A stretch of DNA of 62,128 nucleotides, the filler included, from an uncultured Planctomycetales bacterium (GTDB taxonomy: Bacteria > Omnitrophota > Gorgyraeia > Gygaellales > Profunditerraquicolaceae): the NCBI GenBank assembly GCA_964487475.1. It is 5 parts of 4 records of this genome, joined end to end, with 100 filler letters (N's around TTAATTAATTAA, not from the genome) between each part and the next. Parts side by side here need not be neighbours in the genome. Positions count along the whole stretch, not along the records: positions 37,324 to 59,024 come from CAZAPM010000006.1; 4 more parts are not named here. The stretch is one strand, 5' to 3'. This document shows positions 55,244-59,124 of this stretch, in pieces. The notes below the pieces were generated by a model, which saw nothing but the letters and a program-made list of their open reading frames with translations, was not told the origin of the DNA and searched no databases. Numbering within the stretch: the first letter of the stretch is position 1; each line of letters begins with the position of its first letter. The position numbers were made by a program, and so were the translations under genes.

Positions 55244-57235
55244 TTATTCACGCACGATCTGATGGATCACTTCGAGGTTGCGCCGCGCCTCCTCTTCTCC
55301 CCGCCGGGCGAACTCCTCCGCGCGGTGCAGCTGGAGCCAATGCAGCCCCGAAGTATCCGGATGCAGCACGATGTCCGCCAGCTCGGATTCCCGCTGCACC
55401 AGCTCCGACTGCATGACCTCAATGCTGCTGAACACAATATCTATGATATTATTTTTTACCCCTTCTTGGAAGAAATTTTTTATGCCCATCCAGGTGCGGT
55501 TCTTGCGGGAATGCGCCAGCTGTTCCTTCATCACCTCGTACTGGCGCCGGATATCCTCCCGGGAGGGGGTGACGTTGACGGCGATGATGCGGCTTACCCC
55601 CATCTTGAAGAGCACTTCCGTAGGCAGCGGATTGGTCACCCCGCCGTCCATGAGCATCTGGCCGCTTAATTTGAAAGGATGGAACACCCCGGGCATTGCG
55701 CAGCTGGCCATGATGGCGTCCGAAAGCAGCCCCTTATCCAGGACGATAGGCTCTTTCTTCTTGATATCGCTGGCGATGATCTTCAAAGGCAGGCGGATAT
55801 CCTTGAAGGTCTTGTTGCCGATGTATTTCTTAAGGAACGCGTGCAGGCGGTTGCCCTTGATGAACCCTAAGGTCGGCAGCGTGAAATCCGCCAGCTTCCA
55901 GACGTACTGGTTGCCCTTGAACTCCTTGGTGATCTCCAGGATCTCGTCGGCGCTGCGGCCCGTCACCCAGAGCGCGGCGATGATCGAGCCGATACTGGCC
56001 CCCGAGATGACGTCGACGGGAATGCGCTCCCTTTCGATGACCTTGAGCACCCCGATGTGACAGAGCCCGTAGGCAAACCCCACTCCCAGCGCCAGGCCGA
56101 CCAGGCAATCCCCCACTTCCCGGGAGATGCGGCGCACCACTTTCGCATACTCGCTGTCGGGATCCTGCAGCACCAGCGTATGCGGCTCGTCCATCTCCAA
56201 TTTTGGCAGGGTGGCGAAGATCGGCTGGCCCACCAGCTGCGCCTGCGCGCCGAAATCCATCTTGGAAAGCTTATACTCATTGATCAGCACCTTGATCTTG
56301 GGCATCTGGAAATGCAGCTCGCCGGTAAGCCGCTCCACCAGGTTGCGGGTACGGCGCAGATCGACCTCGTCCGGGCTGGTGAGCAGATGGATCAGGTCCG
56401 CCTGGTTGAGGACCGCGAAGACGAACTCATCCATCACCGCGGGCATATCCAGGACGATATATTTGTAGTCGTTGACCAGGATGGTCAGGAGGCCGACGAG
56501 CTTGCGCACCGCGGACTCATCCCGGGAGTCGTACTTGAAGCAGAGGATATCCACCCCTCCCGGCCCCTTGGCAATGGCCTTGAGCATCAGTGCCGGGTCC
56601 ATCGCCTCTTTCAGGCAGCAGCCGTCCTCGAGCTTGCACATGTAGGGAAGACTGTGTTCCTTATCCTCGGAGGCGATATCCAGCACCACCACGGATTTGC
56701 CGGTCTCCTTGCGCAGGGAAAGGCTCACGTTGAGCGCGTACACGCTTTTTCCCGCCTGGGCGTAGGAGCTGAAGACCGCCAGCACCGTGGATTCGAAGAT
56801 CGTCTTCTGGTGGATATCCTTGTTCTTGAGGCGGCGGGAAAGCGTCTGGCTCAGATCGATCGCCAGCCGGGGAATGGTCTTGAGGAGGTCCGCGAAATCA
56901 TCCTTGGATATCGCCAGCAGCAGGCAGTCGTTGATCGCCTTGGCGGTCACGCTGTGCGGCTCGCCCGTGAGGAGGGAGATGATCCCGAAGTATTTTCCGC
57001 GATGCAGGTACTCCAGGACCTTCTCGCTGCCGAAACGGTCGGAGCTGTAGATCACCACCCGGCCCAGGACCACGCAGTAGAACGCGTCCACGGGCGCGCC
57101 CTCCTGATAGACCAGGGTGCCCTTGCGGTACTCCTTGAGCTGCGCGCGGGCGGTCACGAACGCGAGCTCCTCCTCGGTGAGGCCGAAAAAAAGCGGGGTC
57201 TCCTTGACGATGGTAGCCAGGTCCTTATACTCCAC
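55244..57235 (-). CDS. cNMP-binding / MinD-ParA-like P-loop / patatin phospholipase fusion
   Basis: cNMP domain YFGIISLLTGEPHSVTA; SSYAQAGKS; patatin GLALGVG, GASIG, DGG. Confidence 0.88.
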   Translation of the reverse strand: MEYKDLATIVKETPLFFGLTEEELAFVTARAQLKEYRKGTLVYQEGAPVDAFYCVVLGRVVIYSSDRFGSEKVLEYLHRGKYFGIISLLTGEPHSVTAKAINDCLLLAISKDDFADLLKTIPRLAIDLSQTLSRRLKNKDIHQKTIFESTVLAVFSSYAQAGKSVYALNVSLSLRKETGKSVVVLDIASEDKEHSLPYMCKLEDGCCLKEAMDPALMLKAIAKGPGGVDILCFKYDSRDESAVRKLVGLLTILVNDYKYIVLDMPAVMDEFVFAVLNQADLIHLLTSPDEVDLRRTRNLVERLTGELHFQMPKIKVLINEYKLSKMDFGAQAQLVGQPIFATLPKLEMDEPHTLVLQDPDSEYAKVVRRISREVGDCLVGLALGVGFAYGLCHIGVLKVIERERIPVDVISGASIGSIIAALWVTGRSADEILEITKEFKGNQYVWKLADFTLPTLGFIKGNRLHAFLKKYIGNKTFKDIRLPLKIIASDIKKKEPIVLDKGLLSDAIMASCAMPGVFHPFKLSGQMLMDGGVTNPLPTEVLFKMGVSRIIAVNVTPSREDIRRQYEVMKEQLAHSRKNRTWMGIKNFFQEGVKNNIIDIVFSSIEVMQSELVQRESELADIVLHPDTSGLHWLQLHRAEEFARRGEEEARRNLEVIHQIVRE

Positions 57236-58444
57236 TTACACGCTCCCCTGACTGCACACCTGGGCGAATTTACGCGCGCTCTCCCGCACCCTGCGCTCGC
57301 AGGTACGGTAATCGACTTCCACCAGCCCGAATCGGGGGCGAAACCCCTTATCCCACTCGTAGTTATCGATCAAAGACCAGTAAAGATACCCGATCACCGG
57401 CACTCCCGCGTCCATCGCATCCCGAAGCGCCGCAAGATGCGCGCGGATGAACTCCCAGCGCTGCGCATCGTCGTCGGTACAGATCCCGTTCTCCAGGATG
57501 AACACGGGGAGACGGTAGCGCTTGAGGGACATGAGTATGTCCTTGAGGCCCTGCGGATAGATATCCCACCCCAGGGAATTCTTGGGCATGGGGTCTTTCG
57601 GGGAAGAGCACGTCTGCTGAAGGAGCACGGAGGGTTTCCAGGCATCCGCCTGCACCACGTCCCGGGAGTAATAATTCACCCCCAGATAATCCACGGTACG
57701 CTCCGCGACCACCCACTCCAGGAACCAGCGGTTGAAGAGCAGGTCCCGCGCCCATGCCGCCGCCTTCGTGCGCAGGGACTGGTCGCACGGCACGAACGCG
57801 CGCATGTTATGGGCGAACCCGACCATGGAATGCGTTGCCCCGTAGATGCGCTTGATAGCCCGGTACGCGCCGATATGGGCGCGCAGCATCATGCGCGCGG
57901 AGCGCATCGCCAGGAAAAGGGAGCGCTCCTGCGGAGGCCAGGCCCCGATAAGAAATGCCTGATAGGCGTACACCATGGGCTCGTTGACCGTAACCCAGTA
58001 CGTGACCAGGTCGGAGAACTCCGGGACTATCCTTCTGACGAAACGCAGGAAACAATCCGGGGCATCGACGGAAATCCAACCGCCTTTTTTCGAGAACCAG
58101 AGAGGATTGGTGAAATGGTGCAGCGTCACTACCGGCTCGAGGCCGTGGTCGCGGAGGGACTGCAGCACCTTACGGTAGTGCGCGATCTCCCGCTCGTCGA
58201 ATTCCCCTTCGCGGGGCTCGAGGCGGCTCCATTCGATGGAAAGACGGTGGGCATTATGATTGAGGGATTTCGCCAGCGCGAAATCCTGCGCGAACATCTC
58301 GTACTGCCTGCAGGAATCCCCGCAGCGGTCGGGGACGGAAGCCCTTTGCTCCCACTCCCACCAGTCGCAGTTACGATTGTCCCCTTCCACCTGATAGGCG
58401 GCAGTCGCAGCGCCCCAGAAAAACCCAGAAGGAAATGCGCGCAT
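57236..58444 (-). CDS. Glycoside hydrolase family 1 (beta-glucosidase-like)
   Basis: FFWGAATAAYQVEG, TLHHF, TVNEP (acid/base), ILENG (nucleophile), WSLIDNYEW. Confidence 0.96.
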   Translation of the reverse strand: MRAFPSGFFWGAATAAYQVEGDNRNCDWWEWEQRASVPDRCGDSCRQYEMFAQDFALAKSLNHNAHRLSIEWSRLEPREGEFDEREIAHYRKVLQSLRDHGLEPVVTLHHFTNPLWFSKKGGWISVDAPDCFLRFVRRIVPEFSDLVTYWVTVNEPMVYAYQAFLIGAWPPQERSLFLAMRSARMMLRAHIGAYRAIKRIYGATHSMVGFAHNMRAFVPCDQSLRTKAAAWARDLLFNRWFLEWVVAERTVDYLGVNYYSRDVVQADAWKPSVLLQQTCSSPKDPMPKNSLGWDIYPQGLKDILMSLKRYRLPVFILENGICTDDDAQRWEFIRAHLAALRDAMDAGVPVIGYLYWSLIDNYEWDKGFRPRFGLVEVDYRTCERRVRESARKFAQVCSQGSV

Positions 58445-58451
58445 AGCCGCT

Positions 58452-58480
58452 ATTATAGCAGAAAAAAGAAAAAGGCCCAA
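58452..58480 (-). promoter_or_regulatory. Leaderless-type promoter of the GH1 gene
   Basis: TTGGGC-N17-TATAAT with TG extension; -10 lies 7 nt before the ATG; no SD. Confidence 0.65.
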
Positions 58481-58498
58481 CAATAACTCGTTGGGCCT
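58462..58498 (-). terminator. Intrinsic terminator between the c-di-GMP RNA and GH1
   Basis: AGGCCCAAC-GAGTTATT-GTTGGGCCT-TTTTCTTTTTT. Confidence 0.85.
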
Positions 58499-58509
58499 GT
58501 ATATGCAAT

Positions 58510-58738
58510 AAAAAAAGCCGATAAAGGACGGAGCCACCGGCGACACGACGCCGCACGCTCCTCCCGGCAACCCAGCCGCCATATTGCCCTATAAACCGGC
58601 TACCCCCAAACAACCCGCACGAGGAAGCCAACACCAGTGGCAACACAGGCCTGTGGTTTTGCGCCCCCGCCTTTCGGCGTCCGCGGGTATAGACGCGGAT
58701 CCGGGGCAAAGCGCCCCGAAGGTTTACCTTTATCGGCC
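58510..58738 (-). ncRNA. c-di-GMP-I (GEMM) riboswitch-type RNA with two insertions
   Basis: AAAGGTAAACC...CGCC-GAAA-GGCG-GGGGCGCAAAACCACAGGCCTGTG...TATGGCGGCTGGGTTGCCG, followed by a hairpin and T7. Confidence 0.85.
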
Positions 58739-58745
58739 AAAATTA

Positions 58746-58774
58746 AGTATACCCGACCGGAAGCCGGTTTTCAA
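58746..58774 (-). promoter_or_regulatory. Promoter of the c-di-GMP RNA
   Basis: TTGAAA-N17-TATACT; predicted start at G58738/58737. Confidence 0.75.
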
Positions 58775-58781
58775 GGCCCGG

Positions 58782-59024
58782 TCAGCGTTTTTTCTTCTGG
58801 GTCTCGCTGGCGACCTGTTCGGCCAGGTACGTTCCCAGGATCGCCCAGCTCTGCGGCCCGATCTTTCCGTCCGCTTTCAGGCCGTTCGCCTTCTGGAACT
58901 CCTCGATGGCTTTCTTGGTCATCGGGCCGATCTTCCCGTCAACGGTCCCGGTATAGAAACCGGCGTTCTTCAGTGCGGTCTGGATCTCGGTCCCGGAAGG
59001 CTTATACGGGCCCTGGGGAGGCAG
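58782..59024 (-). CDS. Peptidoglycan-binding domain protein (PG_binding_1), C-terminal part; absent from the ORF track
   Basis: Translates LPPQGPYKPSGTEIQTALKNAGFYTGTVDGKIGPMTKKAIEEFQKANGLKADGKIGPQSWAIL...KKKR*. Confidence 0.9.
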   Translation of the reverse strand: MPPQGPYKPSGTEIQTALKNAGFYTGTVDGKIGPMTKKAIEEFQKANGLKADGKIGPQSWAILGTYLAEQVASETQKKKR

Positions 59025-59124
59025 NNNNNNNNNNNNNNNNNNNNNNNNNNNNNNNNNNNNNNNNNNNNTTAATTAATTAANNNNNNNNNNNNNNNNNNNN
59101 NNNNNNNNNNNNNNNNNNNNNNNN
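59025..59124. other. Artificial contig-join spacer
   Basis: N run containing TTAATTAATTAA. Confidence 0.98.

Follow-up and report, generated by a model that had tools for sequence, protein, structure and literature searches.

The locus and its aptamer

The window, by which we mean the whole stretch of 62,128 nucleotides of DNA that was analysed, from an uncultured bacterium of the Omnitrophota, carries on its minus strand a c-di-GMP-I aptamer which lies between a gene for a peptidoglycan-binding domain protein and a gene for a glycoside hydrolase of family 1 (GH1), and which is predicted to form a transcription unit of its own. The features of the locus, in the order of transcription, are as follows.

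58782..59024, minus strand: upstream gene, 3′ part, for a peptidoglycan-binding domain protein (Pfam PF01471, E 1e-18)
58769..58774, minus strand: -35 hexamer TTGAAA of the RNA's own promoter, with a 17-nt spacer to the -10
58746..58751, minus strand: -10 hexamer TATACT; predicted transcription start at 58738/58737
58510..58738, minus strand: predicted stand-alone RNA, ~229 nt to the first U-tract, ~273 nt if it ends at T2
58727..58738, minus strand: 5′ strand, comprising aptamer P1 and a pocket strand, and also the 5′ arm of the closing helix
58680..58720, minus strand: two hairpins (41 nt) inserted in the P2 5′ strand, from folding
58668..58679, minus strand: P2 apex with GAAA tetraloop (58675-58672), from the Rfam match and folding
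58655..58665, minus strand: J2/3 junction with G45, C46 and A47-A49
58579..58649, minus strand: upper part of P3, in which the tetraloop receptor is formed by 58649-58644 with 58583-58579, and a variable extension lies between
58564..58575, minus strand: P3 3′ strand, C92 and P1 3′ strand
58528..58563, minus strand: variable linker hairpin (family median 26 nt, minimum 1)
58516..58527, minus strand: strand Y (anti-aptamer), the 3′ arm of the closing helix
58510..58516, minus strand: U7 tract 3′ of the closing helix, predicted terminator T1
58462..58498, minus strand: second terminator T2, an 11-bp hairpin (58498-58473) and U-tract, starting 11 nt past U7
58452..58480, minus strand: GH1 promoter, with a weak -35-like TTGGGC (58480-58475) inside T2 and an extended -10 TGCTATAAT (58460-58452)
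57236..58444, minus strand: GH1, downstream gene (Pfam PF00232, E 8e-86)

The 5′ strand spans what we take to be G14 to G21 in Vc2 numbering. The start of the upstream gene falls in an N-padded joint between two contigs (window 59025-59124; C6 and C10 of G000, the window's genome), and the ATP synthase genes from 59128 onward, being across this joint, are not true neighbours of the RNA. Directly 3′ of GH1 lies a gene for a protein with cNMP-binding and patatin domains (55244-57235), which in relatives also has a ParA/MinD-like domain; in two of their loci (L165 and L167) GH1 is absent and the RNA stands directly ahead of this gene.

A preliminary description of this DNA had claimed a promoter TTGAAA-N17-TATACT, which was found at 58774-58746 of the minus strand. 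A promoter match alone is at chance level in the window (three found against 1.7 expected), and the call is credible because it is conserved in relatives: among the 168 pattern-scored members of the RNA family described below, TTG stands at 16-18 nt spacing from the -10 in 158, and the best -10 match lies 6-9 nt ahead of the first G in 156. The second terminator 11 nt after the U7 tract and the leaderless-type GH1 promoter overlapping it, both part of that description, were also recovered. TGCTATAAT ends 7 nt ahead of the GH1 ATG (58444), and the GH1 mRNA is predicted to be leaderless.

With the Rfam c-di-GMP-I model (RF01051), the search proposed in the preliminary description, the window passes narrowly, the match at 58695-58563 scoring 37.8 bits against a cut-off of 35; the score is low and the 5′ end of the match misplaced because of the two hairpins inserted in P2. 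The RNA has a folding z-score of -3.7, and all core GEMM elements previously named (among them P1, the G20-type position, the GAAA tetraloop, CGCAAA and the receptor) are in place. Both the P2 GNRA tetraloop and the P3 receptor strands are present, with a receptor 5′ strand (CCUGUG) that is unlike the usual CCUAA of the family. G20, A47 and C92 are present together with the 21-46 and 22-45 pairs, position numbers which we take to follow Vc2, and P1 has 3 bp, where 2 bp is usual across the family and a few members have lost it. The c-AMP-GMP (GEMM-Ib) riboswitch has A at position 20, and this identity was rejected for the window, where the G at position 20 that had been reported was confirmed at 58728. 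The c-di-GMP-I-GGC variant (RF03167), for which the best match in the clan has to exceed 59 bits, was rejected likewise, RF01051 being the window's best match. Judged by its sequence, the window RNA is a member of the c-di-GMP-I aptamer family.

Of 20 relatives' loci, 19 exceed an Rfam cut-off, with 40-82 bits; the best family is RF01051 in 16 (above its cut-off) and RF03167 in three. Across the parsed members the 22-45 pair is kept in 160 of 161 (U-G 58, C-G 59, U-A 43, C-A 1) and C92 in 156 of 159, G20 being invariant by construction as it was fixed in the member search pattern. Inserts 5′ of P3 occur in 44 of the 175 members, and inserts of the P2 type are also found in ordinary terminator-type riboswitches of relatives (L364, L365, L367-L369). 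Large structured inserts occupy a single junction position, presumably that between 44 and 45 in Vc2 numbering, in L017, L058, L351-L355, L358, L364 and L365, that is, both in this RNA family and in ordinary riboswitches, and aptamers of this build can score too low in standard scans or be overlooked by them; L017 has no Rfam match. A further internal-loop motif, GCCGU opposite a AGUGAGGC-like strand, recurs in the P3 extension of 33 of the 175 members from several families (e.g. L012, L025, L075 and L085) and is absent from the window copy; it is possibly a protein site or a tertiary contact.

The closing helix and the RNA family

The preliminary description had also held that the first 11 nt of the RNA are complementary to the last 11 nt before U7, in a pairing incompatible with the ligand pocket, and both parts of this claim stand. 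All 11 bases of 58737-58727 find their complement in 58527-58517, and a terminal G-U brings the helix to 12 bp; when the downstream 240 nt were shuffled 3000 times with dinucleotides preserved, not one shuffle contained a perfect complement of 11 nt. The closing helix covers G14, G20, G21 and position 22, which we take to form the pocket in the established c-di-GMP-I structure, and the pocket fold and the closed fold therefore exclude each other.

BLAST matches were obtained in 22 of 61 genomes, and promoter, 5′ strand, aptamer and Y were all present in 18 of 20 loci examined, the window included. The 5′ motif occurs in 145 of the 401 genomes of the phylum, mostly once and with few control matches, and a relaxed pattern anchored on the promoter matched in 109 of 401 genomes in the class. 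At least nine of the 11 closing pairs are kept in 168 of 171 scored candidates, which had been chosen by a Y-like motif, the three dropped ones having eight (L197, L255 and L298); these 168, with seven more obtained via the relaxed pattern, make up a family of 175 members, which were found by patterns and not by a covariance model, such that more divergent ones may have escaped. By the family labels of their genomes the members are spread over at least 29 families of one class, mostly with one member per genome, and their length up to the end of Y lies between 118 and 376 nt. Among the matches listed (80 of 121 named records with the same 5′ motif), the helix score was reached in 38 of 42 Omnitrophota and nine of 11 Planctomycetes; one listed record labelled only 'bacterium' has a 12-bp complementary run, and no complement of more than 8 bp was seen in the 26 listed records labelled with other named phyla. 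The promoter pattern had no matches in several whole families (f12, 0/33; f19, 0/21; f20, 0/14).

The association between promoter and helix was also found where selection was independent of Y, the helix being present in 153 of 157 aptamers whose 5′ end directly adjoins a promoter as against 14 of 84 others, counts that include kin and are not independent; in several of these 14 the promoter narrowly missed the rule. Compensatory changes occur at four positions of the closing helix among the 175 members, tallied as sequences and not as evolutionary events. The pair A19-U is replaced by G-C in 16 members from at least three families (with 27 G-U and three mismatches besides), C12-G by U-A in four members of one family with one U-G intermediate, and G11-C by A-U in two members from two families, while position 22 is paired as C-G in 48, U-A in 42 and U-G in 34. 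Comparison of the members indicates that both folds, closing helix and pocket, are under selection. Hardly any variation is seen in the 5′ strand or in Y, including at positions that differ in ordinary aptamers of the same genome.

For 133 of 137 members folding predicts the closed form at p > 0.9. Adopting the pocket-competent fold costs a median of 16.9 kcal/mol once Y is present as against 8.4 before its synthesis (20.2 and 5.9 in the window), and the corresponding figure for ordinary aptamers is 4.1 kcal/mol (eight parsed of 22 tried); these energies are without ligand or tertiary contacts, and 31 of the 168 members were unparsed. As the closed fold is predicted to dominate, the loaded state may be short-lived or rare. 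Y is itself partly paired in the pocket-competent fold, with a median unpaired value of 0.4.

GH1 relatives are present in 166 of 170 family genomes, and the RNA precedes GH1 at 41 of the 86 loci examined. The GH1 -10 is kept in 39 of the 45 loci without the RNA, and T2 and -10 are both kept in 22 of 29 that are syntenic in that the upstream gene is kept. At one locus (L047) a -35 and a degenerate -10 stand directly before T2 upstream of GH1 and the whole RNA is missing, which looks like a clean deletion. With about half of the family's GH1 loci lacking the RNA although c-di-GMP signalling is intact, it is by this comparison dispensable; a loss that tracks loss of such signalling was rejected, as GGDEF genes and c-di-GMP-I aptamers were found in 60 of 60 family genomes searched. 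A miniature inverted-repeat element was also dismissed, G000 having one copy and genomes mostly one 5′ motif. As regards coding potential, a Shine-Dalgarno-led small ORF was found in 61 of the 175 members by a loose test for which no chance level was set, and a crude test saw no conserved small ORF across members. An encoded peptide was rejected in that a 448-aa ORF from 58582, in frame with GH1, is not conserved, L011 having a stop there.

Terminators, transcription and neighbouring genes

Where no T2 was detected, 55 of 63 members have a strong U-tract behind Y, which suggests that helix and U-tract likely end the transcript where nothing else does. The tract has decayed (at most 4 U in 8) in 27 of 102 members with T2 as compared to three of 63 without, the T2 detector having fired on one of 79 shuffles. 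As the closing helix persists where the U-tract has decayed, termination is not its sole job, and that it is kept where termination can scarcely occur suggests that the conserved product is the RNA itself and not read-through.

Transcription is supported by a 210-nt metatranscriptome contig which covers 58519-58728 with one difference and at a depth of 5.1. As regards the discrete species of 230-270 nt that the preliminary description proposed to seek by RNA-seq, this contig lies inside the predicted RNA ends; it comes from one run represented by contigs, which show presence in an RNA library and do not give ends, strand or level. Contigs of the same run cover neither GH1 nor the promoter, which at this depth is uninformative, and a second RNA contig matches 47 nt of the upstream gene and then diverges.

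The genes that follow the RNA on the same strand differ across relatives and include those for GH1, CorA, UvrB, an M48 peptidase, Fur, a methyltransferase, a pseudopilin, a pyridine-nucleotide oxidoreductase and MerR, among others; opposite-strand neighbours include LysE, HAD, radical SAM, PRAI and REC-GGDEF-MshEN genes. In seven members of f16 the upstream gene is divergent and the downstream REC-GGDEF-MshEN gene convergent, in f46 a pseudopilin-like gene follows the RNA, and in L017 and L043 an oppositely oriented LysE gene sits between the RNA and GH1. Only two families, that of the window and a close relative of it, have GH1 itself as the neighbour. As to whether homologues also lack a downstream ORF, a check proposed in the preliminary description, same-strand genes follow in many, yet no one gene is conserved, neighbours are unrelated between lineages and some are convergent.

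GH1-followed members have no Shine-Dalgarno match in 56 of 59 cases and a -10 right before the ATG in 48 of 59. Where the same-strand neighbour is not GH1, no -10 was found in between in 11 of 49 members, among them L077 and L081 with an M48 peptidase gene 41-45 nt downstream; the gene calls used for this count are crude, with at least one miscall in each direction. Of the first 70 qualifying members, 68 have a T2 that is predicted at p > 0.9 whichever of the two folds the RNA adopts, and T2 is predicted in both folds of the window RNA as well; no antiterminator for it was found, its probability shifting by more than 0.3 in none of the 70. A role of T2 as a DNA operator is unlikely, its loop taking large inserts (L012 and L026) and its stem showing paired changes (L018 and L022). 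A comparative test for a cis-acting riboswitch failed in that T2 is predicted to be independent of the fold, GH1 has a separate promoter, and neighbours are varied and in part convergent; the RNA probably does not switch GH1. A switch by interference on the GH1 promoter, as had been suggested, is unlikely as a conserved role, with GH1 as the neighbour in two families only and the U-tract decayed in over a quarter of the members with a second terminator (27 of 102).

Several further observations were made at these loci. An extended -10 placed 6-10 nt before an ATG that has no Shine-Dalgarno sequence is common at GH1 loci and at many of the downstream genes, which suggests that leaderless mRNAs are frequent in the Omnitrophota-type relatives examined. 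Two small proteins (~100 aa) that carry cysteine motifs are repeatedly encoded 3′ of the RNA, in several families (L024, L188, L197, L200 and L205; L202, L206-L209, L211, L213-L217 and L223), and those scanned are without a Pfam match. In f46, L363-L369 are separate, promoter-proximal c-di-GMP-I riboswitches with local terminators ahead of a ~390-aa ORF, whose start, as we take it, resembles REP-associated tyrosine transposases; their leader holds a AAAAGTGCCAGG motif that is repeated twice.

Proposed function and known systems

We tentatively favour the reading that the locus is a c-di-GMP-I aptamer which has become a small RNA gene in its own right, closing upon itself and serving as a switchable store of c-di-GMP and not as a switch for its neighbour, an account that, taken whole, we hold with somewhat less than even confidence. 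From the comparison of relatives, the RNA is probably independent of the neighbouring gene; given such independence, it very likely binds c-di-GMP in cells, and given both, a store seems somewhat the better supposition than a regulator that base-pairs or binds protein. The preliminary proposal of a free-standing, c-di-GMP-switchable RNA of ~230 nt is in this respect upheld by family comparison and one RNA contig as to its being free-standing, and remains a prediction as to binding. The aptamer would be made first, and c-di-GMP could load before Y leaves the polymerase; since energies favour the closed form once Y exists, the ligand would most likely be caught during transcription. At low ligand Y would zip onto the 5′ strand, and the RNA, sealed and inert and usually ending at T1, would not drain a low c-di-GMP pool. 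At high ligand the pocket would lock and T1 would not form, the loaded RNA then ending at T2 or being trimmed at its 3′ end, until later the ligand would be released through invasion by Y, beginning at the free 5′ end. Most cells of Omnitrophota measure ~0.2 µm (PMC10066038), and by our own arithmetic 1 µM amounts to ~3-9 molecules in a sphere of 0.2-0.3 µm, so that a few dozen RNAs could hold the pool and a store is numerically plausible. Set against a store are the dominance of the closed fold, the window's P2 insertion and non-consensus receptor, the three relatives that match best as c-di-GMP-I-GGC, and the strong U-tract where T2 is absent (55 of 63), a feature required of a regulated terminator.

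Other explanations have to be weighed against this. The same grounds for a neighbour-independent RNA apply to a free-standing two-state RNA that would act in trans on an mRNA or protein, the ligand freeing Y or altering RNA stability, and the near-invariance of the 5′ strand and Y, with Y's median unpaired value of 0.4 in the pocket-competent fold, would suit such a role. The window genome, which has seven c-di-GMP-I matches over the cut-off, seven GGDEF matches and five HD_5 matches, also encodes RNase E/G and RNase Y (RNase J was not found in it), and ligand-controlled stability of an sRNA has a precedent in Vc2 (10.1101/617340). Nevertheless, no convincing trans target of Y emerged: besides its own arms the genome holds one 11-nt complement, which is intragenic (0.9 expected), 9-10-nt matches show no clear clustering at start codons, any one linker 5-mer is common to at most 31 of 162 members, and the invariance of the arms can come from the double constraint of two folds. 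Neither Hfq nor CsrA was found in this genome, which is 94.6% complete, and an Hfq-type sRNA and a CsrA sponge were set aside on these grounds, as was a divergent 6S RNA, the genome having its 6S elsewhere (G000:C2:38251-38409, 64.7 bits with RF00013) and the window no 6S match. We regard regulation in trans as unlikely, though it merits consideration. Much the same holds, with a shade less credence, for an ON-type cis riboswitch with a long-range terminator, in which ligand would block T1 and read-through would act downstream by occluding the GH1 promoter at T2, by producing antisense RNA in f16 or by transcribing the next gene. Helix and U-tract have the geometry of a terminator, the U-tract being strong in most members that lack T2 (55 of 63), T2 overlaps the -35 of the GH1 promoter, the M48 peptidase gene of L077 and L081 lies 41-45 nt away without a -10, and the convergent REC-GGDEF-MshEN gene of f16 and the pseudopilin-like gene of f46 are plausible c-di-GMP targets; two terminators in Bc1 (PMC11218506) and antisense-acting riboswitches (PMC9943018) provide precedents. 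Opposed to it are neighbours that are unrelated and in both orientations, a T2 without antiterminator, the LysE gene intervening in L017 and L043, a GH1 with its own promoter and for the most part (56 of 59) no Shine-Dalgarno match, and the 27 members in which the U-tract has decayed and helix and pocket are retained.

It is rather improbable that c-di-GMP is no longer the signal and that the RNA is a stable closed molecule in which the aptamer parts form a scaffold or recognise a protein or a different ligand. The strong preference for the closed fold, the tolerance of large inserts and the three members best assigned to the GGC variant would agree with this, and a conserved aptamer need not respond (PMC11218506); however, the 22-45 pair and C92, relevant to the open pocket only, are conserved and covarying, and ordinary riboswitches of relatives hold similar inserts. 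The suggestion of a relic riboswitch whose gene was deleted, or else of a small mobile element bounded by inverted repeats, is very improbable: its patchy presence, 11-bp inverted ends and the clean absence of the RNA at L047 with -35 and T2 kept might be so explained, but covariation is seen in both folds over at least 29 families of a class, the promoter is conserved outside the inverted ends, the RNA is mostly single copy with synteny stable within families, and an RNA contig was found.

Returning to the store that we prefer, a broader form of it, somewhat more doubtful still, is that these class-wide, riboswitch-derived RNA genes are second-messenger capacitors, which would sample c-di-GMP during their synthesis, hold it and eject it with their own 3′ arm, and so, in ultra-small cells that depend on a host, would buffer or time a pool of few molecules. 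If true, an RNA that stores a ligand and itself carries the means of releasing it would be conserved over dozens of families. Riboswitch aptamers are generally assumed to act in cis on a gene, and the present family bears on the alternative of a reservoir. It offers 175 natural variants, the shortest of 118 nt, with two exclusive folds, allowing loading, release and termination to be tested in vitro without culture of the host, and it offers a way into lifestyle signalling in a phylum that is little understood, for many members of which host-dependent traits are reported (PMC10066038).

The present RNA shares with the c-di-GMP-I (GEMM-I) riboswitch RF01051 the aptamer sequence and fold, the G at position 20 and the tetraloop with its receptor; unlike it, no gene was found under its cis control, its predicted start is at the first base of the aptamer, and its competing helix takes the 5′ strand at long range. 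No description of an end-to-end self-closing aptamer was found in the literature searched, most subscription papers lying outside it. On our best reading by analogy, the RNA works most like merRNA, the Vc2 sRNAs and Bc1. The merRNA of Bdellovibrio bacteriovorus, to which it is likened by description and not by sequence, is a c-di-GMP riboswitch within a non-coding RNA of a predator, has no conserved downstream ORF and was proposed to be a c-di-GMP reservoir that is released by structural change, as outlined in PMC3627812; this role was not directly tested according to 10.1101/617340, and the promoter is described as strong (10.1101/2025.05.17.654431). Unlike the present RNA, merRNA has 445 nt; it is reported from the Bdellovibrio lineage only and was shown to be massively expressed, and the consulted passages of PMC3627812 describe no end-to-end anti-aptamer helix for it. 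In the Vc2 sRNAs of Vibrio cholerae a c-di-GMP-I aptamer also sets the fate of a small RNA; Vc2 is however at the 3′ end of an sRNA derived from a 5′ UTR and also controls tfoY, as reported in 10.1101/617340, whereas in the present RNA, a separate unit, the aptamer occupies the 5′ end. Bc1 of Bacillus thuringiensis similarly has two terminators, of which ligand unfolds the first and leaves the second, the downstream genes barely responding, but it belongs to a 5′ UTR, its terminators are local and the gene that follows does not vary, as portrayed in PMC11218506; here T1 is an end-to-end helix, T2 exists without the RNA too, and neighbours vary. The antisense-acting riboswitches (PMC9943018) bear a likeness to f16, where a gene of c-di-GMP signalling runs head-on towards the RNA, a layout absent from most members and from the window, in which the downstream gene is on the same strand.
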